A DNA stretch of 52,349 nt from Chloroflexota bacterium (GTDB lineage Bacteria > Chloroflexota > Ktedonobacteria > Ktedonobacterales > JACDGC01). The translations under genes and the position numbers were made by a program. This document shows, piece after piece, positions 2,462 through 27,805 of the stretch. The stretch covers positions 1 to 52,349 of the forward strand of contig JAJYBV010000009.1 of NCBI GenBank assembly GCA_021778805.1. The letters run 5' to 3'. Below the pieces are notes generated by a model. The model was given only the letters and a program-made list of their open reading frames with translations, did not search any database and had not been told where the DNA came from. Within the stretch, counting starts at the first letter, position 1, and every line of letters begins with the position of its first letter.

Positions 2462-3571
2462 ATGACATTTCCGCTCGGACCCATTCACCCTGCCTTGCCG
2501 GAGCCAATCAGTTTAAAATTGGCCTTGCACGGAGAGAAAATTACAGGCGTAGAAACGCATACGGGATATTTAAAACGCAGCGTTGAAACCCTGATGCTGC
2601 AAAAAAATCTTGCAGATGCGCTGATTTTGGCTGAACGAATCTGCGGAACCTGCGGCTACAGCCATCGTTATGCGCTTTGCCTTGCTATTGAATCGCTTGC
2701 CGGAATAACACCGCCGCCGCGCGCACAAGCATTGCGCGTTGTATTCGCCGAAGTAGAGCGCATATTAGCGCGGCTGTGGACCCTGGCGCATATTGGGCGC
2801 GCGGCAGAATTAGGCGCGCTGTATACAGGATCGCTTGAGGCGCGCGAGGTACTGTTTGAAGCGTGCGCCGACGCCGCGGATAAACGACTGTTTTGGGAGA
2901 TTGCCGTTCCGGGCGGTGTACAAAATATTCAAGATCCGCAAGCAATAATCGACGCCATACAAGCATTGCAATCGGTACTTGCTCCGTTTGATCGGTTGCT
3001 TTCCCCGAAAGGGGCGCTGGTAAACCGCGCCAATTCGGTTGGAATAGTAACGCAAGACGCCGCAGAAGAAATGTGCATGAGCGGACCCGGCGCGCGCGCC
3101 GCGGGTGTTATGCGCGATGTACGGCGGGATGCGCCATATGATATCTATGCGCAAATGGCGGATATTCTTTCAACAGACCCTATCACGGGCTTTATAGCCG
3201 GCAGTGCGCCGGCGCGGGCATATCAAATGCTGATGGATATTCAGGAAAGCATGCGAATCATTACCGCAATATTTGATGAACTGCCCGATGGGCAGGAACG
3301 CGCAGCGTTGCCGGATATTTTACCGCCCGAAAAAACCGCTGTTACGATAGAAGGAGCGCGCGGCGCAGAAACGCTAACGCTTGAATTAAACGCCAACCGC
3401 GGAACCAACGCCGACCTTACCATGCCCGGATTTATTAAATCTATTGCTTTTGCCACCCCAAGCGGTGAAAATATCGGAGCGCTTCCGGTTATATTACAAG
3501 AAACTTTGCTTTCAGATGCGCTGATAGCGCTTTCCAGCCTGGATCTTTGCATTGCCTGTGTAGATAAATAA
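2462..3571 (+). CDS. Group-4 (energy-converting, Ech/Mbh-like) [NiFe]-hydrogenase large subunit, NuoD-like, 369 aa.
   Basis: The N-terminus GPIHPALPEPISLKL resembles the EchE/NuoD N-terminus. The L1 motif R-I-C-G-T-C-G-Y-S-H matches RxCGxCxxxH. The protein ends with the L2 motif D-L-C-I-A-C-V-D-K, matching [DE][PL]CxxCx[DE][RK]. There is no C-terminal extension after L2, as in Ech-type enzymes. GGAG lies 8 nt upstream of the ATG. Confidence 0.75.
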   Translation: MTFPLGPIHPALPEPISLKLALHGEKITGVETHTGYLKRSVETLMLQKNLADALILAERICGTCGYSHRYALCLAIESLAGITPPPRAQALRVVFAEVERILARLWTLAHIGRAAELGALYTGSLEAREVLFEACADAADKRLFWEIAVPGGVQNIQDPQAIIDAIQALQSVLAPFDRLLSPKGALVNRANSVGIVTQDAAEEMCMSGPGARAAGVMRDVRRDAPYDIYAQMADILSTDPITGFIAGSAPARAYQMLMDIQESMRIITAIFDELPDGQERAALPDILPPEKTAVTIEGARGAETLTLELNANRGTNADLTMPGFIKSIAFATPSGENIGALPVILQETLLSDALIALSSLDLCIACVDK

Positions 3572-3577
3572 CGCAGC

Positions 3578-5767
3578 GTGGGTTCAGGATTCTATGAGAA
3601 AGGTACTGCAATGCTCACACTCTCGAATCTTTCACTTGCGCTGATTTTGGCGCCATTTTTGGCAGGGGTTATCCTTGCCGCCGCCGGCGCGCGCCTGCCC
3701 CGCATTGCGGGTATTGCGATTGCCCTGCTTGCGGCTGTCATTTCCATTGCCGCCGCGTTAACACTGGCCGGCAATGTTTTTCCCGACGGCCCAATCGTTT
3801 TTGCGTTCCCCCTATTTGGCGCGGCTATCGGTCAGCGATTGGATGGATTAAGCGCATATGCGTTAATCGGTTTAACCGTTTGGGTTATCCCTATCCTTTT
3901 GTGGGTTACATTTCCGCGCAGCAAACCAAATTTCCGGCCAATGGGCCTTGTTCTGCTGGCTTCTGCGCTAACTAGCGGCGCTATACTAAACGATAATATT
4001 ATTCTTATCGCGCTTTGCTGGCTGGGAGCCGCCGTTATGGCGTGGCTGATTACCGTTTCTGAAGATATTGCCGGTGGCGCCGAAAACGTTTACCAAACCC
4101 GCTGGGTCGATTTAGTTACCCTTGGCGCCGGCCCAATTTTATTTGTATTGACAATGGTTCCGGTAATGGCAGCGCTGAAAAAAAGCTCCCTGCTCGATAT
4201 AACCGGAGTCACTGTAAATGGCGCATCTCCATTTTCTTTTTTAAACGCTGCGCTGATAGTTGTCGCGTTTTTGTTTGCGCTGGGCGCATATCCCTTTATG
4301 TTGTGGATTCGCCGCGCCGCGCTGGGCATTTCGTCCCATGGGCTGGGTATTATCGGGTTGCTGTACCTTCCCGCCGGTCTTATTTTATTTGCGCGGGTAA
4401 GCTCCGTCATCAATAACCCATGGCCGTCTGTTCCTATCGGCATCGGCTTCTCACTCAACACAATTTACATTATTTTCGGTGTCGCAACTGTTTTCGCCGC
4501 ATCCATAACACTGATGGCGGAGCGCGATATTATGGCTATTGCCCTGCTGTTAGCCGAAAATATTGCAGGGTGGATGATTATTGCTATCGGTTCAGGAAAC
4601 AGCCAAGCGTTAGTTGGCGTTACCTTGCTGCTTGCCGGGTATATCGCCGCGCTGGGCGCATTGGTTGCGGTTATAGCGTCTTTGGAATGCCGCTTAATCA
4701 AAGAGGTTTCCATTGATTCTCTGAAGGGGTTTGCCAAATTTTTACCGCTGCATTTTATTGCGGCGGCAATTGCGCTGCTGTGCCTTGCCGGCGCGCCGCT
4801 TTTGATTGGCTTCGCTTCCTTTGCTCTTATAAATCTTGCGATAGCCAAGTGGGGTGGTTTTGCGTTTTTAGCCGGCGGCGTACTTTGGGTAAGTCAAGGA
4901 TTTATTGCAATTGCCGTCACCCGATACCTTGCCTCATTCTTGGCGCCAAACAACAGCCTTTCCAATGAAGAAACAAATTTATTGCGGTCCGGCGCATCTG
5001 AGGCGCCGTTATTCAGTCTGCCGATTATTATCATGCTGATGGTAAGCATTGCCCCGCAGATGCTTTTGGCGCCGGTCAATCTTATTCCCGGGTTAGGGCA
5101 GCTTGCCGCCGCCTCGTTACTGAACCAAGGTGTGGAAATTCCTAATATTGCAATTTCTATGTTTGGCATTCAAACAACCGGCATATCTTGGGAACCGGGT
5201 TTGTTTTGGATCTTTGGGCTGCTGCTTTTTGCTATTGCGGCGCTGCTTTCCGGAGCCGTTGCTGTAAAAGGCAGCACGTTGCCTGCATTTGCCGGCGGCG
5301 AGCCGTTCCGCGAAGAAGAGATGAACGGATTTACTCCTTGGGCAACTGTTACCCGCATAGCGCGAACCCCGCTTATTTTGCCAGGCCCCGCAAAATGGCG
5401 CAATGATTTAGGCGCTATTGATATTGAAGGTGAACAAGAAAACAGCTCTGAAACAGACACCGACATAGAAGATGAAGGTGAAGCTGAAGCGGATGAAAAC
5501 GCAGACGAAGCAAACGCCGCGACAGTAGTCCCGGAAAAAGCGCATCCAGCTCCAAAATCAGAGACGCCGCGCGCGCATGCACAAAAAACATCGGCCGGCA
5601 AGCAGCCATCAGTGGAGACTAAACAAGAAAAAACCACTGCCGCAGCCACAGTAAATCCAAAGCCGGCCGCCACGACGCCAGCTAAAATTCCACAGAAAAA
5701 TATTCCGCCAAACACACAGCGTCAATCTCAAAAGAAGCATAAGGGGGGGCATAGCCATGGCCGCTAA
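3578..5767 (+). CDS. Polytopic membrane protein with about 14 TM helices, probably a highly degenerate antiporter-like (NuoL/MrpA/EchA-like) subunit, followed by a roughly 170-aa disordered acidic and K/P/T/A-rich C-terminal tail.
   Basis: It is tightly packed between the hydrogenase large and small subunit genes and overlaps the next gene by 11 nt. It is strongly hydrophobic for about 560 aa. The stretch LLLAENIAGWMIIAIGSG loosely resembles the NuoL/M 'LAYSSISHMGFVLIAIG' region but lacks the His. I could not find the canonical GPTPVSALIHAATMV motif by eye. The tail contains EGEQENSSETDTDIEDEGEAEADENADEA followed by PAPKSETPRAHAQKTSAGKQPSVETKQEK. The track start is a GTG at 3578. An in-frame ATG at 3611 (MLTLSNLS) has a GAGAAAGG Shine-Dalgarno-like sequence and may be the true start. 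Confidence 0.5.
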   Translation: MGSGFYEKGTAMLTLSNLSLALILAPFLAGVILAAAGARLPRIAGIAIALLAAVISIAAALTLAGNVFPDGPIVFAFPLFGAAIGQRLDGLSAYALIGLTVWVIPILLWVTFPRSKPNFRPMGLVLLASALTSGAILNDNIILIALCWLGAAVMAWLITVSEDIAGGAENVYQTRWVDLVTLGAGPILFVLTMVPVMAALKKSSLLDITGVTVNGASPFSFLNAALIVVAFLFALGAYPFMLWIRRAALGISSHGLGIIGLLYLPAGLILFARVSSVINNPWPSVPIGIGFSLNTIYIIFGVATVFAASITLMAERDIMAIALLLAENIAGWMIIAIGSGNSQALVGVTLLLAGYIAALGALVAVIASLECRLIKEVSIDSLKGFAKFLPLHFIAAAIALLCLAGAPLLIGFASFALINLAIAKWGGFAFLAGGVLWVSQGFIAIAVTRYLASFLAPNNSLSNEETNLLRSGASEAPLFSLPIIIMLMVSIAPQMLLAPVNLIPGLGQLAAASLLNQGVEIPNIAISMFGIQTTGISWEPGLFWIFGLLLFAIAALLSGAVAVKGSTLPAFAGGEPFREEEMNGFTPWATVTRIARTPLILPGPAKWRNDLGAIDIEGEQENSSETDTDIEDEGEAEADENADEANAATVVPEKAHPAPKSETPRAHAQKTSAGKQPSVETKQEKTTAAATVNPKPAATTPAKIPQKNIPPNTQRQSQKKHKGGHSHGR

Positions 5768-6221
5768 AAATCACGCAGTGTGGGTTTACCCCATCGCCAT
5801 GGGCGCATGCAATGGCTGCGATCAGCAAATTTTAGCGCTGAATGCGCCGGCGTATCAGCTGCGATCTATGGGCATTTCGTTTGTAAACAGCCCGCGGCAC
5901 GCCGATATTGTGCTGCTCACCGGTGTGTTAACAAAACGCATGCGCAGTATAGTAGAACGCACATTAGAGGCGGTTCCCAGCCCGCACGCACTGGTAGCAG
6001 TCGGAGATTGCGCCATTCATGGTGGCGTATTTGCCGATAATCCGCAAATTTTTGCCAACGCCTCTGATATATTAAATGTAAATATTGAAATTGCCGGCGA
6101 CCCTCCAACTCCGGATCAGATTATTGCGGCAATTGTTGAAGCTGCCCGTCAGTTAGATGAAGCCGATAAACCTGCAAATACCGCAGAATCAACACAAGAT
6201 GAGGAGGATTCGACTAAATGA
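5757..6221 (+). CDS. Group-4 [NiFe]-hydrogenase small subunit, NuoB-like, 154 aa, with a non-canonical proximal Fe-S ligand set.
   Basis: The motif V-G-D-C-A-I-H-G-G-V-F matches the NuoB/EchC GxCAxxGGxF cluster motif. The usual N-terminal CC pair is replaced by C-N-G-C. The C-terminal 'PGCPP' motif reads A-G-D-P-P-T-P, so the fourth Cys is Asp. GGGGGG lies 8 nt upstream of the ATG, and the gene overlaps the preceding gene by 11 nt, suggesting translational coupling. The C-terminus is an acidic tail. Confidence 0.7.
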   Translation: MAAKNHAVWVYPIAMGACNGCDQQILALNAPAYQLRSMGISFVNSPRHADIVLLTGVLTKRMRSIVERTLEAVPSPHALVAVGDCAIHGGVFADNPQIFANASDILNVNIEIAGDPPTPDQIIAAIVEAARQLDEADKPANTAESTQDEEDSTK

Positions 6222-7210
6222 ATCCGATAATCAGCGCGCTGATTACGATATGTATCTATCCGGGCGCACTTTTTGCTATTGTGGCAGCGGTACTGTTGGG
6301 GTGGGTTCGCGGCTATGCCCGCGCGGCAGCCTCGGGTAACGCCAACGCCGCGCCGGTGTTCTCTCTTCGCGAAATCACTCGGCGCACACGGCAGCAAAGC
6401 GTGGAAACCGAAGGCACTAATTTTGCTGTTACGCAAATAATAACTATTGCGGCAATAACCGCGCCGCTGTTAGCGCTGGTGTTTATGCCTTTTCCGGGAA
6501 ACAGCAATCCAAGCATAAGCCTGTTTCCAACAAACGCCATTGCGGAAGCCGCCCTACTGCTGGGTATGCCGTTAAGCAAAATATTGCTTGGCTGGTTAAC
6601 ACCCTCACCCTACACCCGATTAGCCGCGATACGGTCTGTACGCGCGCTGTTGGGATATGTTGTTCCGTTTGTATACGCAGTTACGGTTGCCATGGCGCTG
6701 CACGGTTCATTAACTTTGGAGGGCTTTTTTACCCCTATACCTTCGGGAACTGCAATTCATAACTATTTTATCGAGGTTATATTACTGATTGCAGGATTGC
6801 TCTATCTTATATGCATACCGGTGTTTACCCGTTTAACGCCACTGCGCGCAGATTTTGGCGCTATCGAGCTGGCGTCTGGTGAATTGACGGAATTGAGCGG
6901 CGGACAACTGCTGGTTATGCGCGCCGCCGAAGCAATTCAAACCTTGGCGTTTATCGGTTTTGGCGTCTCTATTTTTGTTGCCCCGTTATTTTCAGCCGGC
7001 GCAATTCGCTCCGTTAGTTTTATAGCGATTCTGTTTATTGTTGCTATTTTATTAGGGGTATGGGAAGGCTTCGCGCCGCGCATCCGCACATCTGAAGATT
7101 ATATGCAGCCAATAACAGCCTGGAATAACATGGGATTGCTGATATTGGAAGCAGCTGGAATACTCGGGTTTTTAGTCATACATCTCATCAACATCTATTT
7201 TCATTGGTAA
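6218..7210 (+). CDS. NuoH/EchB/HycD-like membrane anchor subunit, 330 aa.
   Basis: The start overlaps the small-subunit stop by 4 nt, with AGGAGG 9 nt upstream. The protein has multiple TM helices. D-F-G-A-I-E-L-A-S-G-E-L-T-E-L-S-G-G matches the NuoH 'FDLAEGESELVAGYxTEYSG' loop. The C-terminal P-R-I-R-T-S-E-D-Y-M-Q-P-I-T-A-W matches the NuoH 'PRxRxDQxMxxxW' motif. Confidence 0.65.
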   Translation: MNPIISALITICIYPGALFAIVAAVLLGWVRGYARAAASGNANAAPVFSLREITRRTRQQSVETEGTNFAVTQIITIAAITAPLLALVFMPFPGNSNPSISLFPTNAIAEAALLLGMPLSKILLGWLTPSPYTRLAAIRSVRALLGYVVPFVYAVTVAMALHGSLTLEGFFTPIPSGTAIHNYFIEVILLIAGLLYLICIPVFTRLTPLRADFGAIELASGELTELSGGQLLVMRAAEAIQTLAFIGFGVSIFVAPLFSAGAIRSVSFIAILFIVAILLGVWEGFAPRIRTSEDYMQPITAWNNMGLLILEAAGILGFLVIHLINIYFHW

Positions 7211-7251: not shown

Positions 7252-7289
7252 CAATGGGGCGGCTATAAAGCTGCCCCATTGCTATATTC
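7252..7289 (+). terminator. Candidate intrinsic terminator after the hydrogenase-like operon.
   Basis: The arms caatggggcggc / gctgccccattg form a 12-bp stem with one mismatch around a tataaa loop. A moderately U-rich tail, ctatattc, follows. Confidence 0.4.
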
Positions 7290-7454
7290 AAAACATCGCA
7301 AATGAGCAGAAAAATGCAACGCCAATACTGATTTTCGTAATTACGCAGGGGATTTTGACAAGGTCTCCATAAAGCAAAAGATACCGCGCGATATTGATAG
7401 TCAGGCAGCAAGGGCGCCAATATTGCCCTGGGAATATTTTTTTTAATAAAAAAA

Positions 7455-7510
7455 TTGGGGGGACACCCCAATCCCCGCGCAACGGGCTACCGCCCCTTAC
7501 GTATCCTCAG
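7455..7510. repeat. Solo copy of the GGGGACACCCC palindromic repeat unit.
   Basis: The sequence ggggggacaccccaatccccgcgcaacgggctaccgccccttacgtatcc has the same unit architecture as the arrays at 29981-30235, 40594-41035 and 45749-46193. Confidence 0.8.
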
Positions 7511-7572: not shown

Positions 7573-7601
7573 TTGACAAAATGTTCTAAGTATGTTACAA
7601 T
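7573..7601 (+). promoter_or_regulatory. Near-consensus sigma70-type promoter for the 7667 gene.
   Basis: TTGACA (7573-7578), an exact 17-bp spacer, and TACAAT (7596-7601). Confidence 0.55.
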
Positions 7602-7666: not shown

Positions 7667-8395
7667 ATGAATAAACAACCAAATGAATCAATTTATCCCG
7701 CCAATTGGCTTTTTGGCAAAGATTTTGATCCCTCAGAACATCTTATGAAAATCGATCGCTTTGATCGCGCAACTCAACGTAAAATCGTTAATGAATATAT
7801 GAATGTGCAAAATCGTCTGCTTTGGTTTATCCGCGACCAGCGCGCGATTATTGCTTCCGGCGCCGCTAAAGGCGCCTATGAAATAAAAACCGAATTAATA
7901 GAGCTGGATAGGCAGGTTGGCTGGGCGCATTTTAAAACCTACATCCGCGACACGCTGGGCAACGAAGCGGTTATGTATGGCTCCGAATCCGCGCGCGATT
8001 TTCCGGATTTTATTGAAAAAGCCAACACAAAATCATTGGGCCGCGCGCTGCTTCTGCTGGGTTACGGCACAGCGTTTGCCAACGAAATGGATGAGGAAGA
8101 TCGCTTTGTGGATGCTCCTCAATCTATTACAAAAGAACCGGCTGAACCCTATAAAACCGGCGCGGCCCAGCCTAAAACCAATACCGTTTCCGTGCTTCAC
8201 GAACCGGCGGCTGATTTTGCCAAAACTCCAGACCTGATGGCTACAGAACGGCAAAAAACTAGTATTCAAAAAATCTGCGCAAAACTAGGGCAGCCTGAAC
8301 CAGATATTAATTCAATGTCGTTCGACACCGCGCGGAATACACTGGCGCAATTAAGTGTGCTACTTCAACAAAAACGAACATTGACCGCCGTATAG
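7667..8395 (+). CDS. Hypothetical protein, about 243 aa.
   Basis: The ORF track starts at a TTG (7652). An ATG at 7667 sits 6 nt after GAGGAGG and is preferred. No family was recognised. The C-terminal third is low-complexity. The gene has its own strong promoter downstream of the hydrogenase cluster. Confidence 0.5.
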   Translation: MNKQPNESIYPANWLFGKDFDPSEHLMKIDRFDRATQRKIVNEYMNVQNRLLWFIRDQRAIIASGAAKGAYEIKTELIELDRQVGWAHFKTYIRDTLGNEAVMYGSESARDFPDFIEKANTKSLGRALLLLGYGTAFANEMDEEDRFVDAPQSITKEPAEPYKTGAAQPKTNTVSVLHEPAADFAKTPDLMATERQKTSIQKICAKLGQPEPDINSMSFDTARNTLAQLSVLLQQKRTLTAV

Positions 8396-8407: not shown

Positions 8408-9841
8408 CTATGGTTCTTCTGAATTTGCCGCCAACAACTCCGCGCGCTCTTTTTCCGCGGTAGTATGCGCGGCAAATATTGGCTGAAACGCAAAGTAATT
8501 CATCGGGCTGCGCCAGCCAAACCATAACGCCAACGGCGCAATCAACGGCAAATCATTTCGGTTAACCGGCCGAAACCACGCCCATGCTATCAATCCCACC
8601 CACACTCCAAATTCCATGCCGCTCCATAGTATATGCGGCCCAAAGGGAATGTCGCGGCTCAGCGCCAAACTAATCGGGCCAAACCCTATTGGATAAAATG
8701 AATCCGTCGCCGGAACCAGCACACTTTGAAACCACGCCACCGGGCTTAAGATGATAAACGGCAAATTGACGGCAAAAAAGACCGCAAACATCCACACACC
8801 ACCGGCAATTGCCGCTTTCCATCCGTCTTTTTTATAGATTGCAATGAAATAAAACGGCGCAAAAAACCACGCCAATTGTTTTATCGAACACGCCAATCCC
8901 ATCATTATCGCCGACGCGCGCCGGTTAGGGCTAAAAAACCACGCCGCAGCAATACACAAAATGACAATCACATCATAATTAACAAATATCGTATAATTCC
9001 AAATCGCCGGATTCAGCAGCGCGGCGGTAAGCATACTTGGGCGCTGCTCTGGCAAGGCGCGGCGCAGCAGCAAAAAAATTAATATGGCAAACGCCAATAA
9101 ATTCAGCCACAGCAACGATGGCATGCCAGCCCAAATAAATGGCGCGCCCAGCAGTAATATACCTGCTGGATAATTATGCACCGTGCGCGGATCAAACGCC
9201 GTAGTTGTTTTTTCGCCACTGGAAAAAACCTGGTGTATCACCACTTCCCGCGCCGCTATAGAAGGATAATTCAATGGGTTAGCGCCAAACGCATGAGCGC
9301 CCAGCACAGGTGTTGGTGTTTCACCCGGCCAACGCTGCAAAGCCTGCCAAAATGCCGCATTATCGGTATACGGGTTTACGCCATGCAAAATAAGATCAAT
9401 ATCCATATGTATAAACGCTATGGCGTCTACACGATAGTTTCCCGTCACCGCATCGGTAATTTGCGGCGCCGCAAAATTCGTTGCGGTAATAAAAAACGCC
9501 ATTATCCACACAATTTGAATAAGCCGGTACCACAGCGTATGCGATATTTTTTCATAAATCACTTGAACGCCTTTAGGTAGTTGATTATGCGAAGCAACCC
9601 ATAACAGGGCAAAAGCAGCTATCGCAAAAAGAATACCCGCCGGACCTTGCCAGCGCAGCAGCGCGCCTTCCCCGGGACTGACTATCGTTATCGCCTGGAA
9701 CAAAAAAAATTGTCCGGTCAATAATGTCATCCACCGCCAAGAAGGTGTGAACATAGCAATTAAAAAATTACCGGCTTTTTCCCATAGCCGAATAAATCGG
9801 CGGAGATAGTCGGCAAAAATAAAAGGTTGTGTGTGCATCAT
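8408..9841 (-). CDS. Integral membrane protein, 477 aa, likely a GT-C-type glycosyltransferase-like protein of the DUF2029 or ArnT/PMT class.
   Basis: It has about 12 TM helices with aromatic-rich periplasmic loops. The family call rests on general resemblance only. Confidence 0.35.
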   Translation of the reverse strand: MMHTQPFIFADYLRRFIRLWEKAGNFLIAMFTPSWRWMTLLTGQFFLFQAITIVSPGEGALLRWQGPAGILFAIAAFALLWVASHNQLPKGVQVIYEKISHTLWYRLIQIVWIMAFFITATNFAAPQITDAVTGNYRVDAIAFIHMDIDLILHGVNPYTDNAAFWQALQRWPGETPTPVLGAHAFGANPLNYPSIAAREVVIHQVFSSGEKTTTAFDPRTVHNYPAGILLLGAPFIWAGMPSLLWLNLLAFAILIFLLLRRALPEQRPSMLTAALLNPAIWNYTIFVNYDVIVILCIAAAWFFSPNRRASAIMMGLACSIKQLAWFFAPFYFIAIYKKDGWKAAIAGGVWMFAVFFAVNLPFIILSPVAWFQSVLVPATDSFYPIGFGPISLALSRDIPFGPHILWSGMEFGVWVGLIAWAWFRPVNRNDLPLIAPLALWFGWRSPMNYFAFQPIFAAHTTAEKERAELLAANSEEP

Positions 9842-10360: not shown

Positions 10361-10496
10361 TTTTTTTAGGCAAAACACCAACCAAAATCTACATCAGAAA
10401 TTTGCGCATTCTTAAGCGAGATGTTTGTTATCTCAATATCACTAAAATGCGTCATTTCCAATGCAGCGGTTAGTACATACTATAAGGAGACTTCAC

Positions 10497-11522
10497 ATGC
10501 TTGATTTATTGCGCATACTGCAAGAAAGCGCGTTAAAAGCGCTGCTTTCTGCCGAAACAAGCGCCGAAATTGCGCAATGGCAAAATTTGTATTTAGGGCG
10601 GCAAGATGGCGAATTAACTAAAATTCTGCGCGGATTAAAAGATGTGCCGGCAGCAGACCGCAAAACCATCGGTCAACGCGCCAACGAAGTAAAAAATGAG
10701 CTGGAAGAGCAAGCCGAACTGCGCAAAAAAGCTATCGCAGAGCAAGAACTTGTAAGCGCTTTAGTTGCGGAACGACTAGATGTTACGTTGCCGGCCCGCA
10801 CGCTGAACAGCGGATATATGCACCCCATTTCACAAACAATTTACGAAATCTGCGGTATTTTCCAAAAACTTGGCTTTCATGTGATTGAAGGACCCGAAGT
10901 TGAAACTGATTATTATAACTTTCAGGCGTTAAATATTCCGCAAGACCACCCCGCAAGGGATATGCAGGATACTTTTTGGGTTGAGCCAGGCCAAATTTTA
11001 CTGCGAACTCAAACATCGCCCAACCAAATTCGAATTATGGAGCAAACTAAACCGCCGGTGCGCGCCGTTGTTCCGGGCAAAGTCTATCGCAACGAAGCGA
11101 CCGACGCTACCCACGAAGCCATGTTTCACCAAATAGAAGGCCTTGCAATAGATTCTTCAACCACTATGCGCGACTTGCGCGGCGCGTTGGAAGCTTTTGC
11201 CCGAGAGTTATTTGGCCCGCAAACAAAAACACGGTTTCGGCCGAGTTATTTTCCATTTACGGAACCCAGCGCAGAAGTTGATGTTACTTGCAATGTTTGT
11301 GGCGGCTCTGGCTGTAGAGTTTGCAAGTTTTCCGGCTGGGTTGAAATCGGCGGCAGCGGCATGGTGCACCCGCAAGTGCTGCGCAATGTGCAATACGATC
11401 CCGCGGTATATCGCGGATATGCGTTTGGCATTGGCGTAGAGCGCATTGCAATGATGCGCTATGGTATCAATGAAATTCGCCTGTTCTCTCAAAATGATCT
11501 GCGGTTTTTACGGCAATTTTAA
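10497..11522 (+). CDS. pheS: Phenylalanine-tRNA ligase alpha subunit.
   Basis: The class II aaRS core is present, including FPFTEPSAE and GWVEIGGSGMVHPQVL motifs and the conserved C-terminus ...RYGINEIRLF. An AAGGAG Shine-Dalgarno sequence lies 7 nt before the ATG at 10497. The track ORF begins earlier, at 10461. Confidence 0.9.
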   Translation: MLDLLRILQESALKALLSAETSAEIAQWQNLYLGRQDGELTKILRGLKDVPAADRKTIGQRANEVKNELEEQAELRKKAIAEQELVSALVAERLDVTLPARTLNSGYMHPISQTIYEICGIFQKLGFHVIEGPEVETDYYNFQALNIPQDHPARDMQDTFWVEPGQILLRTQTSPNQIRIMEQTKPPVRAVVPGKVYRNEATDATHEAMFHQIEGLAIDSSTTMRDLRGALEAFARELFGPQTKTRFRPSYFPFTEPSAEVDVTCNVCGGSGCRVCKFSGWVEIGGSGMVHPQVLRNVQYDPAVYRGYAFGIGVERIAMMRYGINEIRLFSQNDLRFLRQF

Positions 11523-12814: not shown

Positions 12815-15379
12815 ATGAAAGTTCCGTATCATTGGCTGAAAGAGTATGTCTCTTTCGATGCAAGTCCGGAAGAGCTTGCAGAAAAACTTACTATGGCAGG
12901 GCTGGAAGTTGAAAGCGTAGAACACGTTTGGAATAACATTATTACCGCCCGCATCAATCATTTGGAACCGGTAAAAGGCTCCAGCCATTTAAACGCAACG
13001 AAAATTTTTACCGGCGAAGGCCGTGAATTAAGCGTAGTGTGCGGCGCGCCAAATATTAAGGAAGGCGATATTGTGCCGCTAGCGCTGCCCGGCGCGCAAT
13101 TTTTTAATGACGCCGGCGAAACACTGACGATTCAGGCCACAAAAAAAATGGGCGTGGTTTCCGAAGGCATGCTTTGCTCGCCCCGCGAACTGGGGCTATC
13201 GAGCGATCATGAGGGAATTTATATTTTACCAAATGATACCCCGCTGGGTGTTTCACTGGCAGACGCGGTTATTCACTTGGATATTAAAGCGCACCGCGGA
13301 GATTTGTTCAGCATGGTGGGGATTGCCCGCGAAATGGCCGCTTTATTTGGCGCAAAGCTGAAGCAGCCCGAAATTAAATTACCCGAAAAAGGCAAAAATT
13401 CCATCAAAAAAATGGCGTCGATTACCGTGAAAGCTGAAGACGATTGCCCGCGTTTTACTGCGCGTGTTATCCGCAATATCAAAATGGGAAAAGCTCCCCT
13501 TTGGATGGCGCAACGATTAGCGCTCGCCGGAATGCGTTCCATAAACGTTATTGTTGATATAACCAATTATGTCATGCTAGAGTTAGGCCAGCCGCTACAC
13601 GCCTTCGATTACGATAAAGTTGCCAATCATCACCTGATTATCCGCCGCGCTGAACCGGGCGAAACGTTAGGCACGCTGGATGGCGCTATGCGCGAACTGA
13701 CACCGGATATGGTTTTGGTGTGCGATGAATCCGGGCCGCTTTCCGTTGCCGGCGTTATGGGCGGCGCATCCAGCGAAATTTCATCGGATACAACGCAGAT
13801 TTTGCTTGAAGCGGCTTCTTGGAATCCCGTAAATATTCGCAAAACATCGGCAAAATTAGGATTGCGCAGCGAAGCTTCCAGCAGATATGAAAAAGGCGTC
13901 GATCCGGAATTGGCGTTGCAGGGATTAAATCGCGCCGCACAATTAATGGCTGAATTAGCGGGCGGAGAAATTGTTCCGGGATACTTGGAGTCTTATGCTC
14001 ATCCGTCTCCTAACGTAACAATTCCATTCCACGCCAGCGCCTGTGAATGGCTGCTGGGGTACTCGGTAACTCCTGAAGAAGCTGCCGGCGCGCTGCGATC
14101 TTTGGAATTTGCTGTAGAGCAGAATAGTGATGATGGCTCTATGCTGGTAACGGTTCCCAGCTGGCGCGGCGATATTCTGGAATCGGCAGATTTGGTTGAA
14201 GAAATTGCCCGAGAATTGGGATATGACCGTATTACGGGAAAATATCCGACCGGTGACGCGCCGGAACCGCAAGCGGCGAACTGGTTTGATATTCAATATC
14301 AATTCCGCCGCCGGCTGCAGCAATGCGGCTGCGCAGAGATTGTTACATATCCGCTGACCAATCAGCGCTCTACACTGCAATTGCTGACCGATGAAAGCGA
14401 CACAGCGCAATTGCTGATTGGCGCGGTAGATGAGCTGGCTCCTGCAGAAAAAGGCAAAAAAAATAACGGGAAAAATAAACAGAAACAACAATCGGCGCAG
14501 TCTGTTTCCGAAACATATGATCAGGCAATACCTCCATTGTCAGCTGATGAACTGCCGGCGGTCAGACTGGTAAACGCTATCAGCGCAAAAATGGATATGC
14601 TGCGTATTACGCTGATGAATGCCATGCTGGAAACTATTTCGGCAAACTTACGATACGGAAACGCTTCGCTGCGGCTTTTCGAGATTGGACGCAGATACAT
14701 TGCGCTGCCAAACAGCGAACGGCAATTGCCGGATGAACGCCGCACGTTATGCGTTGGGCTGACCGGTTACACCGAAAGTTGGACCGAACCGCGCCGAGAA
14801 TATGATTTTTTTGATATGAAAGCGATTATTGAAAATATTGCCGGCGGACTGCATATGACAAATCTGCGCTTTACTCAAACGCAATCGCCAATATTTCATC
14901 CGGGCAGATGCGCGCTGTTAGAGGTGGAAGACAGCCACGCTAAAGAATCTCGATTTCACACAATTGGCGTAATGGGAGAAGTGCACCCAATTATTGCAGA
15001 GCGGTTCGGTATTTCGCAGCGAACGTATCTGTGCGAGATCGATCTTGCCAGATTATATCTTCACAATACGCCGCCGCGGTTCCAGCCGATTTCTCGATAT
15101 CCGGCGCTGACACGCGATATTGCTGTAGTCGCTGATATTTCAGTGCCGGCGCAAACGATTGCGGATGTTATAAAAGCATCCGGCGGAGAACTTACCCGTT
15201 CCGTTACATTGTTTGATGTTTATATGGGAGATCAGATACCGGAGGGCAAACGCAGCCTTGCGTTTACTGTAGAATATCAAGCGCAGGATCGCAATTTAAG
15301 CGACGCTGACGGAGATTTTTTACGTGAACAAACTGCAAATGAATTGAAAAAACAAGTACACGCGGTTGTGCGTGAATAA
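12815..15379 (+). CDS. pheT: Phenylalanine-tRNA ligase beta subunit.
   Basis: The N-terminus MKVPYHWLKEYV is the canonical PheT start. The B3/B4, B5 and anticodon-binding-like regions are present. A lysine-rich low-complexity insertion (EKGKKNNGKNKQKQQS) is encoded around 14440-14500. The start is placed at 12815, 8 nt after the hom stop, with an AAAGGAAATAAG Shine-Dalgarno-like sequence. The track ORF starts upstream at 12728. Confidence 0.9.
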   Translation: MKVPYHWLKEYVSFDASPEELAEKLTMAGLEVESVEHVWNNIITARINHLEPVKGSSHLNATKIFTGEGRELSVVCGAPNIKEGDIVPLALPGAQFFNDAGETLTIQATKKMGVVSEGMLCSPRELGLSSDHEGIYILPNDTPLGVSLADAVIHLDIKAHRGDLFSMVGIAREMAALFGAKLKQPEIKLPEKGKNSIKKMASITVKAEDDCPRFTARVIRNIKMGKAPLWMAQRLALAGMRSINVIVDITNYVMLELGQPLHAFDYDKVANHHLIIRRAEPGETLGTLDGAMRELTPDMVLVCDESGPLSVAGVMGGASSEISSDTTQILLEAASWNPVNIRKTSAKLGLRSEASSRYEKGVDPELALQGLNRAAQLMAELAGGEIVPGYLESYAHPSPNVTIPFHASACEWLLGYSVTPEEAAGALRSLEFAVEQNSDDGSMLVTVPSWRGDILESADLVEEIARELGYDRITGKYPTGDAPEPQAANWFDIQYQFRRRLQQCGCAEIVTYPLTNQRSTLQLLTDESDTAQLLIGAVDELAPAEKGKKNNGKNKQKQQSAQSVSETYDQAIPPLSADELPAVRLVNAISAKMDMLRITLMNAMLETISANLRYGNASLRLFEIGRRYIALPNSERQLPDERRTLCVGLTGYTESWTEPRREYDFFDMKAIIENIAGGLHMTNLRFTQTQSPIFHPGRCALLEVEDSHAKESRFHTIGVMGEVHPIIAERFGISQRTYLCEIDLARLYLHNTPPRFQPISRYPALTRDIAVVADISVPAQTIADVIKASGGELTRSVTLFDVYMGDQIPEGKRSLAFTVEYQAQDRNLSDADGDFLREQTANELKKQVHAVVRE

Positions 15380-15453
15380 CTGATGTGCGCAGCGCGGGCA
15401 AAATTCTTTTACCGGAGTTTCTGCCTACGCCGCCTGTACACAATTAAAGGCTG

Positions 15454-16422
15454 CTATTGCTCCATACTGATAACTATTTTGCCGTGAACATGGCCATTTT
15501 GCATATGCTTTATTGCTTGAATCGTTTCCGAAAACGGATATATGCGGTCGATAATTGGTTTTATTTTTTGAGCTTCAAGAAGGTCTTTAAGATAGAGCAG
15601 ATCCGCAGGAGTTGGAGTGGTCATCATATTTGCTATTTTTTGTTTTTTGTTTCCTGCAAATGGCGCGCCAGCCATCATCATTTCCAACATAGACCGCATT
15701 ATTTTAGAGCCGCCAACCCCAACATACACACCTGCAGGGCTTAAAATATGCCGATACGCATGTATTGAATGATAGCCGTTGATTGCAATAATACTATCAA
15801 ATTGAACGCTGCTTGCAGTAATATCTTCAGCAGCATAATCTACAATATGATCAGCGCCTAACGCATGCGCAATTTCTATACTGTTAGCGCCGCAAACAGC
15901 TGTAACTTCTGCCCCAAACAGTTTTGCCAACTGCACAGCAAAAGTTCCAACTCCCCCGCCTGCGCCTTGAATTAATACCTTTTGCCCCGGCTGTACCTTT
16001 GCGCGATCCCTTAACGCTTGCAGAGCAGTTATCGCCGCTATTGGCGTTGCGGCAGCTTCAGCAAACGAAAGTGATGCAGGCTTAAGCGCTACGGCTGTTT
16101 CACCGGCAGTGGCATATTCTGCAAAAGAACCGCTGCCCCGGCCAAACACCTCATCACCTGCTTTAAATTTGGTAACATTACTTCCAACTGCTTCTACAAC
16201 ACCGGCTAAATCTACTCCTACTTTGGGATCGGAAGGTTTAAACAGTCCGCCCATCAAACGCACCAATGGAATATCAGCAATTATCAAGTGCAGATCTAGC
16301 GCATTAACGGAGGCCGCATGCATCTTTATGAGAAGGCGATTTTCTTTCAGCGTTGGCTTTTCAATTTCTTTGAATTGGAGGTTATCAACTGAACCGTATT
16401 TTGTACAATAAACGGCTTTCAT
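15454..16422 (-). CDS. NADPH:quinone oxidoreductase or zinc-independent medium-chain dehydrogenase/reductase.
   Basis: MDR-superfamily features include the GAGGGVG nucleotide-binding motif, a GroES-like N-domain and AGETAVALKP. Confidence 0.75.
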   Translation of the reverse strand: MKAVYCTKYGSVDNLQFKEIEKPTLKENRLLIKMHAASVNALDLHLIIADIPLVRLMGGLFKPSDPKVGVDLAGVVEAVGSNVTKFKAGDEVFGRGSGSFAEYATAGETAVALKPASLSFAEAAATPIAAITALQALRDRAKVQPGQKVLIQGAGGGVGTFAVQLAKLFGAEVTAVCGANSIEIAHALGADHIVDYAAEDITASSVQFDSIIAINGYHSIHAYRHILSPAGVYVGVGGSKIMRSMLEMMMAGAPFAGNKKQKIANMMTTPTPADLLYLKDLLEAQKIKPIIDRIYPFSETIQAIKHMQNGHVHGKIVISMEQ

Positions 16423-17092: not shown

Positions 17093-18541
17093 TTGCGCGG
17101 CGCCATATTTGATATTAAAAATGGATTTTATATGCCGCAAGAACATCGATCAGAAAACCAGCGGGATGAACCGCAGCAAATTCTTATTGCGACCTGCCGC
17201 GCGCAGCCCGATAGCAGCAACGAGCACAATCATACACCACTGCCGGCAGGAAAATATGCCTTTATTTTAACGGAACGCCGCGCGGCGTCGGCAAAGCCGC
17301 AATGCGGATGTTATACGTGCGCAAATTCAGAGCGGTATCGCATTATCCGCGAAGAGCCGGCACCGCAGGGCGATATTATTTTAGTAATACATGGATTTAA
17401 CTGCACTGAAGACAGCGGCGCCGATACCGCCTTAAATATACGGCAGGCTCTGCGCGCTTGGAAATTTCCCCCGGATTCCGCGGCGCGCCATGAAAAAAAA
17501 CTATACCCCACTGTTGTTGGGTTTACATGGCCATGTATGCACGATCTTTTCCCCGGTTATATTTCCGACAAAGAAAGTGTTGCCAGATTTGCTTCTTTTT
17601 CCCTGGCCAATGTATTATGGGATCTTCGCAAGGCAGAGCCGGAGAGAAAAATACATATTATTGCGCACAGTATGGGATGTTTTTTGGTTGTAAAGGCGTT
17701 AATGTCTTTAGGAATATTGCATGGGCTGACAGAACAATGCCCAATTGTAGATACGGTTATGATGCTGGCGCCGGATGTTAACGCATCAGCGCTGGAACGT
17801 TCAACCCCAGATTTTATTTCTTTAGCGAGGCGCGGATTTCGCCGCCGCGGTAAAGCGTTTTTTTCATTGAAATATCGGTTCAGCCGGCCTATCACCGCGC
17901 CGGCAGCTACGCATCCAACCATTGAGTTTTCTCCGTTGAACCATCCTATTGATGGTTTTGGCTACGAAGCGTTAGACGCCATAAAACAATTACATATTTT
18001 TAACTCATTCAATGATGAAGCGTTATGGATTTCTCCGCTGGCAAATATGCTAACGGAGGAATCAATCAGCGCCGACAGCCATGTGCGGCTTGGCTGGTGC
18101 GGCCCGCTGCGACCGCAGTATTTGCTGCAAACCGAGCGCGAACGGCCGCGTGATATTCGTTTATATGATTGCTCCGCGATCATATACGAGCACGGCCAAT
18201 ATTTCTTTCATCCGGATATTCAGCGTGTTATTGCAGCAATACTAACGGAATCGCAAAATATTCCCGGCGCCACACAGTATCCAAATTCGCTCACTTCACT
18301 GCAATCTTGGCTTGCCGGCACACCGTTGCAATATCCGCCGAATCCGGCAGAGCCGATTCCAGAGGGATTGCGTTTTTACTCATTCGTCAGCAATGTGCCG
18401 CAAAACCAGATTATACCCACCGCAGAGCATGGCGCGCCAACACAAAATCCTAATGTCATGCTAAAATTATGGGGATCGCCATTCCGTTTTATTCTGCGCT
18501 TTTGGGTATATATACTGCAAAAAATCTTTAGGTTAGGCTGA
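17093..18541 (+). CDS. Alpha/beta-hydrolase-fold protein of the DUF900 (PF05990)-like type.
   Basis: I-L-V-I-H-G-F-N and V-V-G-F-T-W-P match the DUF900 'VHGYNN...FSWPS' signature. The nucleophile elbow is A-H-S-M-G-C. The start is uncertain, with an alternative ATG at 17132. Confidence 0.55.
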   Translation: MRGAIFDIKNGFYMPQEHRSENQRDEPQQILIATCRAQPDSSNEHNHTPLPAGKYAFILTERRAASAKPQCGCYTCANSERYRIIREEPAPQGDIILVIHGFNCTEDSGADTALNIRQALRAWKFPPDSAARHEKKLYPTVVGFTWPCMHDLFPGYISDKESVARFASFSLANVLWDLRKAEPERKIHIIAHSMGCFLVVKALMSLGILHGLTEQCPIVDTVMMLAPDVNASALERSTPDFISLARRGFRRRGKAFFSLKYRFSRPITAPAATHPTIEFSPLNHPIDGFGYEALDAIKQLHIFNSFNDEALWISPLANMLTEESISADSHVRLGWCGPLRPQYLLQTERERPRDIRLYDCSAIIYEHGQYFFHPDIQRVIAAILTESQNIPGATQYPNSLTSLQSWLAGTPLQYPPNPAEPIPEGLRFYSFVSNVPQNQIIPTAEHGAPTQNPNVMLKLWGSPFRFILRFWVYILQKIFRLG

Positions 18542-18543
18542 TC

Positions 18544-18846
18544 GTAACTACTCAGAGAGAACCAAAGCTTTGCATAAATAGGACATATACCACAAAATGA
18601 ACACCACATGTTGATGGTCTTAACTCAATGAAGTAGGTCATAAACAAAACTAACGCAAAAGATACAGCGAAACGCAAGCGGCAAGGGTCGCCCCTACCGG
18701 ATTGCATCGCCTCATGGGTACCGCGCAGTGGTTCATTTTATATAAAAATGTATTTGGGGACATCCCATTCCCCGCGTAAGGGGCAGCTGCCCCTTACGAA
18801 TCCCTGCATATGTGGCAGAGCAAGAGTATGATACCCCCTGAGTAGT
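18544..18846. repeat. MITE-like element with 12-bp terminal inverted repeats (GTAACTACTCAG / CTGAGTAGTTAC) carrying one GGGGACA(T)CCC palindromic unit.
   Basis: The left end is cgtaactactcagagagaacc (18544-18564). The right end is gataccccctgagtagttacc (18826-18846). The internal unit ggggacatcccattccccgcgtaaggggcagctgccccttacgaatcc lies at about 18758-18806. The right-end segment is homologous to the left end of the 29935-30400 element. Confidence 0.65.
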
Positions 18847-18857
18847 TACCAAAATTA

Positions 18858-20168
18858 CTAAGTGTCGGATTTTTTGGCCAGCGGCAAGGTAAAATAAAAC
18901 TCACTGCCGGAACCCAGCCGACTTTTTACCCATATTTGCCCATGGTGTGATTCCACAATGTGCCGCGCAATCGCCAAGCCAAGCCCTGTGCCTTTGCGCT
19001 GCTCTTCGGTGAAAATTTTGGCAAACTTACCGGCGTCGCGCGTGGGCAATTCCCGCGCCTTGAAAAAGCGCTCAAAAATCCTGGGAATATCATCTTCGGG
19101 AATGCCAACTCCGGTGTCGCTCACTTTTACCGTAATGCAAGGTTCATCAAAGCGAATAAATTTTATCGCCGAGGGATCGCGAGTTAATAAGCTGAGTTTG
19201 CCTTCGCTTAATGTTCCCAAAGAAGCGCTTAATGTAATTTCACCTTCTTCGGGAGTGAATTTAATTGCGTTATGAATTAAATTCACAAGGGTCTGTTCAA
19301 TGCGCGCCGCATCGGCTTGGGCAAAAGGCAGCTGTTCGTTTAACTGCGCTGTAATGGTGATATTGCGTTCTTTAGCCAACGGACGCATACGTTCAGCGGC
19401 AACTTCCAGCACACCATTAATATCCGTTGGTTCCAGCTCCAGATGAATCCGGCCGGATTCTATGCGGCTTAATTCCAGTAAATCGTTGACCAACTCTGTT
19501 AAATGATCTACCTCAACAACAATGCGGCCGGCAAATTCTGCCGCGGCGGCAGGATCTTCATGCACAGTATCGGCCAATGTTTCAGCCAGCAGTTTGGTAG
19601 ACGCCAACGGTGTGCGCAATTCGTGTGAAACGGATGTAACAAAATCTTTACGCACTGTTTCCAAGTAGCGCAATTGGGTTTCATCTTCTATAAAAAGCAG
19701 CAAATGCGATGGCAAAGTCGCTTCAGAGCTAGAGCGCGGCTCTAAAAAAAGCGGCTTGATAGTAACATGCCAAACTTCATCTTGCGCAGAGCGGGTAATC
19801 GTGCGTTCCTGCATAACACCGGTTTGAGCGGCGGCGATCATCAGCTGAGTTGTTTCATAGTCATTCACGGCTTTGATCAGCAATTTTCCAATTACTTTTT
19901 CGTAAGTTGCGCCAATAAAATAAAGCGCGGCAGGGTTAACATCCACAATTGTCCTGTCAAATTTTGCCAACAAAACCGGTCTGGGAATCGCTTCTATCAG
20001 CATATGAATAATTTCCAGTGAAGAAATACCGGATGTGCGCGCCGCCGAGACTTCGGCAGTTTGTTTAGCGTTTGCGCCGGAAAGCGCAGATTGGTTTCGC
20101 TCAATCAGTTTCCACAAAATTGCGGAAAGTATCAGCGCAATAATAAAACCAAATACAAAAGATTCCAT
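18858..20168 (-). CDS. Sensor histidine kinase (TM, PAS, HisKA and HATPase_c domains) with no adjacent response regulator.
   Basis: The H-box is S-H-E-L-R-T-P-L-A-S. The G2 box is G-T-G-L-G-L-A-I-A-R-H-I-V-E-S-H-H-G-Q-I-W-V-K-S. An N-terminal TM helix is present. Confidence 0.8.
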   Translation of the reverse strand: MESFVFGFIIALILSAILWKLIERNQSALSGANAKQTAEVSAARTSGISSLEIIHMLIEAIPRPVLLAKFDRTIVDVNPAALYFIGATYEKVIGKLLIKAVNDYETTQLMIAAAQTGVMQERTITRSAQDEVWHVTIKPLFLEPRSSSEATLPSHLLLFIEDETQLRYLETVRKDFVTSVSHELRTPLASTKLLAETLADTVHEDPAAAAEFAGRIVVEVDHLTELVNDLLELSRIESGRIHLELEPTDINGVLEVAAERMRPLAKERNITITAQLNEQLPFAQADAARIEQTLVNLIHNAIKFTPEEGEITLSASLGTLSEGKLSLLTRDPSAIKFIRFDEPCITVKVSDTGVGIPEDDIPRIFERFFKARELPTRDAGKFAKIFTEEQRKGTGLGLAIARHIVESHHGQIWVKSRLGSGSEFYFTLPLAKKSDT

Positions 20169-20499
20169 ATTTTTTCATAAAACCTTTGGTTTAAAGCAAG
20201 TTAGCAAAATACTGCGAATGCTGTTGTTTACTGTAAAAGCATACTCATTGCCATTTGGCCAAAACTGAACAGTATCTTAAATTGTGCGTTCTTCGCCGGC
20301 AAAGGCGGCTTCATAATACGTATTACTATAGCATATTTTTGATATATTTGTATGAAGGAAGATATATCTGCACACTAAAGAAAAATATTTATGCAAAACA
20401 TCCTGAAAGAGCATTTATAAAATCACGAATGGATTCCGGCGCTGCTGCATTGGGATAGCATTCGCTTTGTGGCAGCGCTTTCGTTACGGCGCGGCGTAA

Positions 20500-22304: not shown

Positions 22305-22461
22305 TTTCCTTGGCACAATCTTTAGCAAAATTATAAACCCGAATTAGCACACAAAAAAGTATCTTGTTCGGTTTTCCTTGATTAGTTTGCCGAGCAAGAT
22401 ACCAATGTAAAATAGTCTGTTTTCTTCAAATCGCCTACATACACAAATAGAAAGGCTTGTT

Positions 22462-27666: not shown

Positions 27667-27805
27667 AGTTTAATATCTCTATATTTCAACATCTCGGCTA
27701 AACATACGCCACCACAGGCAAAAAGCGTAAGGCTAACCGGCTGGTATCAGGTAAAGTATACCATATATCTGTTAATCGGAAAATAGTGTTATGAAACTAG
27801 GATAT

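Follow-up and report, generated by a model that had tools for sequence, protein, structure and literature searches.

Can a membrane-bound complex of the group 4 [NiFe]-hydrogenase/complex I superfamily be built from four subunits, without NuoC-like and ferredoxin-like NuoI-like proteins, and if so, what does it do? The question is raised by an operon at positions 2,462 to 7,210 of a 52,349-bp stretch of DNA (hereafter the window; contig JAJYBV010000009.1, positions 1 to 52,349, GenBank assembly GCA_021778805.1) from a Chloroflexota bacterium of the order Ktedonobacterales. To our knowledge, every characterized complex I or group 4 hydrogenase contains a NuoB-C-D-I quartet together with NuoH and an antiporter-like subunit. 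The operon codes for NuoD-like, antiporter-like, NuoB-like, and NuoH-like proteins (D, L, B, and H, in gene order), and an earlier note on this DNA described it as a minimal hydrogenase-like module, perhaps an undescribed reduced or early-diverging form. We find that the locus is a new reduced variant of the group 4/complex I-type complexes, composed of real, conserved, and functional genes. As to its activity, we favor, with a probability of about one half, a membrane-anchored, non-pumping, two-cofactor [NiFe] module that would exchange electrons directly with a separately encoded carrier. The four genes (with lengths in amino acids [aa] and Pfam matches) are as follows.

2462-3571, + strand: D, NuoD/[NiFe]-hydrogenase large-subunit-like, 369 aa (Complex1_49kDa, 2.4e-27; N-terminal part of NiFeSe_Hases, 4.6e-8)
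3611-5767 (ATG start), + strand: L, antiporter-like (NuoL/M/N, MrpD type), 718 aa (Proton_antipo_M, 7.4e-10)
5757-6221, + strand: B, NuoB/hydrogenase small-subunit-like, 154 aa (Oxidored_q6, 3.3e-25)
6218-7210, + strand: H, NuoH-like membrane anchor, 330 aa (NADHdh, PF00146, 2.8e-16)

A conserved four-gene operon

The gene calls agree with the four plus-strand open reading frames (ORFs) first described, including the 11-nucleotide (nt) overlap of L with B and the 4-nt overlap of B with H, and Shine-Dalgarno sequences are clear for D, B, and H. L has an alternative GTG start at 3578 that would give a 729-aa protein; the ATG at 3611, which leaves a 39-nt gap between D and L, is backed by the gene callers and by the N termini of homologues. 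The four proteins are divergent, as their NCBIfam scores fall far under the cut-offs for NuoD, NuoB, NuoH, and NuoN, and the source annotations name none of the four.

The D-L-B-H order is found again in 11 other complete loci (L007, L009, L010, L012, L013, L015, L016, L017, L172, L174, and L175), whose flanks are unrelated to each other, so the arrangement is not a product of chance. It is kept across all three clades of the family (see below), as expected of a real conserved unit with homologous clusters in related genomes. Between the window and L012 (87% identical), the ratio of nonsynonymous to synonymous substitution rates (dN/dS) is 0.13 for D, 0.16 for L, 0.12 for B, and 0.17 for H, showing that all four genes are under purifying selection and functional; these values, together with intact reading frames in all loci, rule out a pseudogene or decaying remnant.

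The family is narrow in its distribution. About 25 relatives of the large subunit lie at 45 to 51% identity and others at 34 to 40%, and in a scan of species-representative genomes all matches of at least 39% identity are Ktedonobacteria/Ktedonobacterales metagenome-assembled genomes (MAGs), with the next matches (28 to 33% identity) being ordinary Ech/Mbh loci of Acidobacteria, Clostridia, Dehalococcoidia, and archaea. Family members that carry a taxonomic name are all Ktedonobacteria MAGs. An exhaustive HMMER scan of 1.84 billion protein representatives returned 7,966 relatives; among the best 35 of 150 listed matches (P0003 and P0112 to P0145, each a 50%-identity cluster), at least 18 belong to the four-gene family, the whole four-Cys main clade forming one such cluster. 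When the family alignment was run against metagenome contigs, one further family locus (L092) came up among the matches listed.

The family large subunits form a single clade (bootstrap 100/100) in a neighbor-joining tree, with three subclades: "main" (bootstrap 85), which holds the window; "deep" (100; L010, L016, and L017); and "FAM2" (100; L173, L175, P0028 to P0031, and others). With midpoint rooting the family branches separately from the Ech, Mbh, and NuoD sequences sampled, in a tree that is drawn only from the family's own search matches and has long branches and unreliable rooting.

NuoC-like and NuoI-like genes are absent from the neighborhood

The view that the missing partners are not simply adjacent to the operon holds for the whole span searched, namely, the 52-kb window and a stretch of about 20 kb at the locus of each relative examined. 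The Pfam-scanned window ORFs of at least 150 aa between 7.6 and 51.6 kb include no NuoC, Fer4/NuoI, nuo, or hyp gene, the gene calls on identical contigs, which cover the window's first ~13 kb, likewise list no NuoC, NuoI, or hyp gene, and the NuoC family PF00329 has no match in the four-gene unit. The region from 7.6 to 51.6 kb contains housekeeping and signaling genes only; the window genes include GH31, PheS/T, homoserine dehydrogenase, ADH, histidine kinases, a T2SSE ATPase, SPFH, CrtC, glycosyltransferases, two FtsW/RodA proteins, Crp, ALDH, RibF, FHA proteins, an MCP, and ArgB/ArgC.

Profile hidden Markov models (HMMs) for the two partners, built from 82 NuoC-like and 116 NuoI-like ORFs beside outgroup large subunits, gave best E values of 2.6 (NuoC) and 0.5 (NuoI) in six-frame scans of the window and 13 family loci. 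Among 73 outgroup control loci, each with at least 5 kb of flank on both sides, a NuoI-like ORF lies within 8 kb in 70 and a NuoC-like ORF in 57; the sensitivity of the NuoC HMM is thus imperfect, with no NuoC-like ORF detected in the other 16.

A complete Ni-Fe ligand set and a non-canonical small-subunit cluster site

Both canonical large-subunit motifs reported by the earlier note are present, L1 (RICGTCGYSH) at aa 59 to 68 and L2 (DLCIACVDK) at aa 361 to 369, the latter forming the C-terminal end; the protein has neither a C-terminal extension nor an N-terminal NuoC fusion. Its best match in the PDB is Pyrococcus furiosus MbhL (6cfw_L, 5.8e-37, full length), and its AlphaFold model (predicted local distance difference test [pLDDT] score, 89.9; predicted template modeling [pTM] score, 0.90) has template modeling (TM) scores of 0.81 to 0.87 to NuoD/HycE. 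The published list of first- and second-sphere active-site residues of MbhL (PMC11228991) was mapped onto the window protein. C61/C64 and C363/C366 align to MbhL C68/C71 and C374/C377, and E14, H68, R300, and D361 match the second-sphere residues E21, H75, R320, and D372; the second-sphere changes relative to MbhL are I70T, S110A, P319A, H325L, and E343T. Set beside what we take to be the usual group 4 patterns, L1 has Thr where Ile, Leu, or Val is common, and L2 ends in Lys rather than Arg or Leu. With no canonical Ni-Fe ligand missing and the key second-sphere residues in place, the window large subunit most likely still carries a Ni-Fe(-like) center. The prediction that it should bind Ni-Fe is therefore supported by the complete ligand set, but it is less safe than first thought, as sister lineages that have lost one or all four of the Cys residues still keep the operon, and most relatives have His in place of the Arg.

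A quinone had been listed among the possible electron partners. However, the position of the complex I quinone-site Tyr is occupied by Gly62, that of Nqo4 His38 by Glu14 (the hydrogenase type), and the quinone-site Tyr/His are absent in the main, deep, and FAM2 clades alike, ruling out a quinone-reducing site of the complex I kind. As the Ni-Fe ligands also occupy the position of the quinone head group, a quinone partner is unlikely.

The small subunit keeps the CNGC and GDC motifs in residue-level alignments to MbhJ (6cfw_J, 4.3e-26) and HycG (7z0s_G), and the CNGC is of the CxxC type rather than the tandem CC of the complex I NuoB N2 motif. Its cluster ligands are C18, C21, and C85, with the Cys of the GCPP motif replaced by Asp115 ("GDPP"), so that the four Cys residues that define the proximal [4Fe-4S] cluster of group 4 are reduced to three Cys plus Asp. 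The description of a single-cluster small subunit is thus right as to the number of cluster sites, but the site is not a canonical one. It could bind an Asp-ligated [4Fe-4S] or a [3Fe-4S] cluster. Proximal clusters with three Cys plus Asp are found in oxygen-insensitive actinobacterial-type hydrogenases, which is a lead rather than a test. The protein ends in an acidic C-terminal tail (6140-6221).

The membrane subunits

The L protein has about 14 to 15 hydrophobic segments and the H protein about 7 to 8. The homology of L to the antiporter family is detectable (PF00361, as listed above), and the L family profile matches the antiporter-like subunit of MBS (6u8y_X, 3e-15) and Escherichia coli NuoL (3rko_L, 9e-12). 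Nonetheless, NuoL residues E144, K229, H254, H334/H338/K342, and K399/D400 align to uncharged residues or gaps in L, family-wide, and no invariant intramembrane charge takes their place; the Glu of transmembrane helix 5 (TM5), TM7 Lys, TM8 His/Lys, and TM12 Lys/Glu used for ion translocation are thus all missing. Degeneracy of the polytopic membrane protein, suspected from the start, extends therefore to every canonical proton-transfer residue, and because each of these positions is uncharged or a gap, proton translocation through L by the canonical antiporter mechanism is not expected. L does have a conserved cytoplasmic segment, "PVFxGGEP...LPGPxxWRxDL", followed by an acidic and then a basic tail; the C-terminal tail of 150 aa (within 5290-5767) is acidic in its first part and basic in its second. 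The last ~90 residues are of low complexity, acidic (net -13) and then basic and rich in Lys, Pro, Thr, and Ala (net +11). Tails of L and B are similar in relatives and differ in length, and an antisense ORF (5170-5715) seems to arise from the composition of the L tail.

The assignment of H as a NuoH-like anchor is borne out by its family profile, which matches MBS (6u8y_M, 3e-11), E. coli NuoH (7nyh_H, 4.9e-11), P. furiosus MbhM (6cfw_M, 1.2e-10), and HycD (the range extending to 6e-10), although a single-sequence phmmer search of H against the PDB gave no match. H keeps the NuoH-type "E-L-x-x-G-E-L-T-E-L-S-G" loop ("ELASGELTELSG" versus "QELADGYHIEYSG") and the Glu after it.

Relation to known complexes

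Characterized small group 4 hydrogenases have six subunits, a NuoB-C-D-I module with NuoH and one antiporter-like protein (PMC3144371), and it is the lack of Ni-Fe ligands that defines Ehr complexes (PMC6349859, PMC10284858). The window locus falls outside both definitions, having neither six subunits nor a four-Cys cluster, and having a large subunit with all four Ni-Fe Cys residues, which is at odds with Ehr (PMC6349859).

Among the closest known systems, Ech (group 4e; EchABCDEF of Methanosarcina barkeri and the Ech of Thermoanaerobacter kivui) shares with the locus a large subunit of ~360 aa without a C-terminal extension, a small subunit of the CxxC...GxC type, and one NuoH-like plus one antiporter-like membrane subunit; Ech-type loci of Acidobacteria and Clostridia are also the next-best genomic matches after the family itself. 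Unlike Ech, the locus lacks EchD (NuoC-like) and EchF (NuoI-like, 2x[4Fe-4S]), its gene order is D-L-B-H rather than A-B-C-D-E-F, its antiporter-like subunit is without the Lys, Glu, and His residues, and Asp replaces the fourth cluster Cys. Mbh of P. furiosus (6CFW) is the best solved match for both catalytic subunits, and all of its active-site residues E21, C68, C71, H75, R320, D372, C374, and C377 have counterparts in the window, but Mbh is a complex of 14 subunits, including MbhK (NuoC), MbhN (NuoI, for ferredoxin docking), and Mrp-type modules. Complex I (NuoB, C, D, I, H, and L) shares the NuoB, NuoD, NuoH, and NuoL/M/N folds and homology, and differs in having NuoC, NuoI, the quinone-site Tyr/His, and CC rather than CxxC in the small subunit.

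Ehr and Mbx/MBS (6U8Y) are complexes derived from group 4 with decayed Ni-Fe ligands, a description that fits most of the window's relatives (deep clade, FAM2, and L172), and MBS gives the best structural matches to the family profiles of both membrane subunits. NuoC-like and NuoI-like subunits are still present in MBS/Mbx, the Ehr-type complex whose structure has been solved. The lack of the Ni-Fe Cys set that marks Ehr is found in L172/P0011, the deep clade, and FAM2; the deep and FAM2 relatives would count as Ehr-like, yet they have only four genes.

The proposal that this is an undescribed form agrees with the literature, in which we found no specific description of four-subunit or NuoC/NuoI-less group 4 complexes, and nothing specific on group 4/Ehr complexes in Ktedonobacteria or on new subgroups, although the Cys-less relatives may already be catalogued. 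A 2021 preprint places Ehr complexes in the Chloroflexi supergroup.

A proposed non-pumping [NiFe] module and its alternatives

Which genes are present, their conservation under purifying selection, the state of the key residues, and the lack of partner genes nearby are direct observations; the metal occupancy of the site, the lack of pumping, any direction of H2 turnover, and the identity of the partner are inferred. In the reading that we favor, the catalytic pair of NuoD-like large and NuoB-like small subunits alone would survive, anchored in the membrane by the NuoH-like and non-pumping antiporter-like subunits. The Ni-Fe(-like) center would be in electronic contact with a single non-canonical Fe-S cluster with three Cys and one Asp ligand, and because there is no NuoI-like ferredoxin subunit, electrons would pass directly between this cluster and a carrier docking at the usual NuoI site, the simplest candidate being a soluble ferredoxin-type protein. 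The stronger claim, that B, D, H, and L make up a catalytically active [NiFe]-hydrogenase with neither NuoC nor NuoI, fed through the three-Cys-plus-Asp cluster by a transiently docking soluble carrier, is tentative, and we think it unlikely to hold in full.

Most main-clade members keep the four Ni-Fe Cys residues at an overall identity of 45 to 50%, but several observations weigh against a [NiFe] module. There is no hyp maturation gene in the 52-kb window or in the ~20 kb around each relative, and no candidate electron partner is conserved beside the operon. Nearly all relatives have His in place of the active-site Arg, which is kept only in the window, L012, and the L015 lineage. All four Ni-Fe Cys residues are lost in L172/P0011 and one in each of L013/P0023 and L014; in the deep clade the bridging L1 Cys is replaced by Ala and the Arg by Gln, and in FAM2 the bridging Cys is replaced by Ala or Ser, the Arg by His, and the Glu mostly by Gln. 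In the small subunit, L015 has lost all four Cys residues, and the fourth ligand varies between Asp, Ser, and Asn in the main clade, with the deep clade and FAM2 keeping Cys there. Complete Ni-Fe ligands are thus paired with a three-Cys cluster and a four-Cys cluster with an incomplete Ni-Fe site. The cofactor sites of this family are evolutionarily labile while the operon persists, including where the Ni-Fe Cys (L172) or the Fe-S Cys residues (L015) are gone altogether.

This lability is also the chief argument for an Ehr-like pseudo-enzyme, in which the selected function would not be H2 catalysis and the intact Ni-Fe motifs of the window would be a leftover or a side branch; the complex might instead perform another redox or metal-dependent reaction at a remodeled site or have a structural or regulatory role in the membrane. 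Of the 50%-identity representatives of the family, at least 18 in number, just one has all four Cys residues; the others have three, lack the bridging Cys, and share a conserved His where the Arg would be. The loss of the pump residues and the want of nearby hyp genes fit as well. However, the window protein is canonical at all first-sphere and key second-sphere residues, including the Arg missing from most relatives, the four Cys residues are kept across most of the main clade at 45 to 50% identity, and the published Ehr definition requires that there be no Ni-Fe ligands (PMC6349859). We regard a pseudo-enzyme as possible but on the doubtful side.

A further alternative is an ordinary six-subunit enzyme assembled in trans, with NuoC-like and NuoI-like subunits encoded elsewhere, either stand-alone or shared with nuo. 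The span inspected, as given above, leaves room for such genes, Ktedonobacteria are aerobes expected to carry nuo genes, an orphan nuoJKL set lies 2.5 kb downstream of the L007 cluster, and NuoC of the EchD type is divergent, with the HMM missing a NuoC-like ORF in 16 of the 73 outgroup loci. But the absence is uniform over 12 independent contexts and three deep clades, NuoI being adjacent in 96% of outgroup loci, and the lost cluster ligand and pump residues point to a remodeled enzyme rather than a split standard one, making this explanation distinctly unlikely.

An early-diverging ancestral form that predates NuoC and NuoI is very improbable: the gene set of B, D, H, and one antiporter-like subunit does match the one hypothesized for a first fusion between membrane modules and a soluble hydrogenase, and the family stands apart in the midpoint-rooted tree, but that tree has the limits of rooting and sampling stated above, the taxonomic range is narrow, and the distinguishing characters are losses of residues conserved in hydrogenases and complex I alike. 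Of the two origins that the earlier note left open, the early-diverging one is accordingly weakened by the confinement of the family to Ktedonobacteria-like genomes. The reduced one gains, being in line with the losses of pump residues and of a cluster ligand and with the repeated losses of Ni-Fe Cys residues in relatives. Taken together with the genes that are present and the few taxa that carry them, these losses are better explained by secondary reduction of an Ech/Mbh-type enzyme than by a primitive form.

Transcription signals and neighboring genes

The GH31 gene upstream was described as convergent with the operon, but it is encoded by the minus strand and starts at 2024, so that the two are divergent. 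Two features flank the operon.

2025-2461, no strand assigned: divergent intergenic region between the GH31 gene and the operon, with a Shine-Dalgarno sequence (GGAG) at 2453-2456
7252-7281, + strand: GC-rich stem-loop of 13 bp, 42 nt past the H stop codon (-27.9 kcal/mol; no T-tract)

A consensus promoter scan of 2025-2461 passed no site, and Rfam has no riboswitch or known RNA upstream or downstream of the operon. A terminator and an independent promoter had been proposed downstream. The promoter is well matched by a site at 7573-7601 ahead of the next gene, with 11 of 12 consensus positions and an extended -10, but the terminator is not canonical, as the 7252-7281 hairpin has no T-tract and was not called by a scan for canonical terminators. 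The hairpin is nonetheless unusually stable (z = -3.53; 0 of 200 shuffles folded equally well) and may be a terminator or an mRNA-stabilizing element. Between it and the promoter-like site, a T-run, an A-run, and a GGGG...CCCC hairpin at 7438-7476 resemble a bidirectional terminator, called by the scan on the minus strand only.

The next gene, at 7667-8395 (+; 242 aa), and the one beyond it, at 8408-9841 (-; 477 aa), have no Pfam match. The former is conserved in L012 (90% identity; dN/dS, 0.07). It was considered as a hidden fifth subunit or a diverged endonuclease III (EndoIII)-like protein and rejected, having no similarity (best E = 7.9) and its own promoter-like site. In five main-clade relatives, an EndoIII/HhH-GPD-like gene lies directly 3' of the NuoH-like gene on the same strand, at the following positions.

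L009:12692-13396: EndoIII-like gene
L172:14740-15441: EndoIII-like gene
L174:15056-15766: EndoIII-like gene
L013:~15439-16140: EndoIII-like gene
L015:~10362-11048: EndoIII-like gene

It has a C-x6-C-x2-C-x5-C [4Fe-4S] loop and, at two of these loci, overlaps the stop codon of the NuoH-like gene; no such gene is found at that position in the window, L012, or L007 or in the deep clade. It may reflect plain synteny or be a linked Fe-S protein.

The deep-clade operons contain unrelated insertions between their conserved genes, an MBL-fold gene in L017 (11100-12071) and two ORFs without Pfam matches in L016 (11494-12390, 298 aa; 14781-15356, 191 aa). These are neither NuoC-like nor NuoI-like, nor are they conserved, and they were dismissed as missing subunits; the operon evidently tolerates insertions. 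The orphan nuoJ-nuoK-nuoL set of L007 spans 17515-20282 and is separated from the cluster by two opposite-strand genes. Elsewhere in the window, four ORFs (395, 404, 442, and 220 aa) at 21117-23676 (+) and 26338-28468 (-) have no Pfam match and flank a T2SSE-type ATPase gene (24392-26137), with an SPFH/Band-7 gene (28496-29875) just beyond. The gene at 37253-38779 (-) codes for an AAA/SpoIIIAA-like ATPase fused to a phosphotyrosine-phosphatase-like domain, and a 57%-identical homologue adjoins a FAM2 locus (L173:1-1583), which suggests that the FAM2 hosts are probably related Chloroflexota.

Implications

The four-gene family raises the testable question of what the minimal assembly unit of the complex I/group 4 superfamily is, and lets the need of catalysis for a NuoI relay be tested; the chemically "dead" antiporter-like subunit likewise poses the question of what purpose it has without pumping. 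The family is also a natural series of cofactor decay, from four Cys residues with Arg, through four Cys residues with His and three with His, to none, and could show how a hydrogenase site is repurposed, as on the way to the complex I quinone site. If the complex is inactive or structural, it would be a clean case of a redox scaffold kept as a pseudo-enzyme in aerobic soil bacteria. If it is an active four-subunit hydrogenase, the ferredoxin-like subunit and NuoC would be dispensable for assembly and catalysis, and the family would be a living analogue of the hypothetical minimal core behind Ech, Mbh, and complex I.

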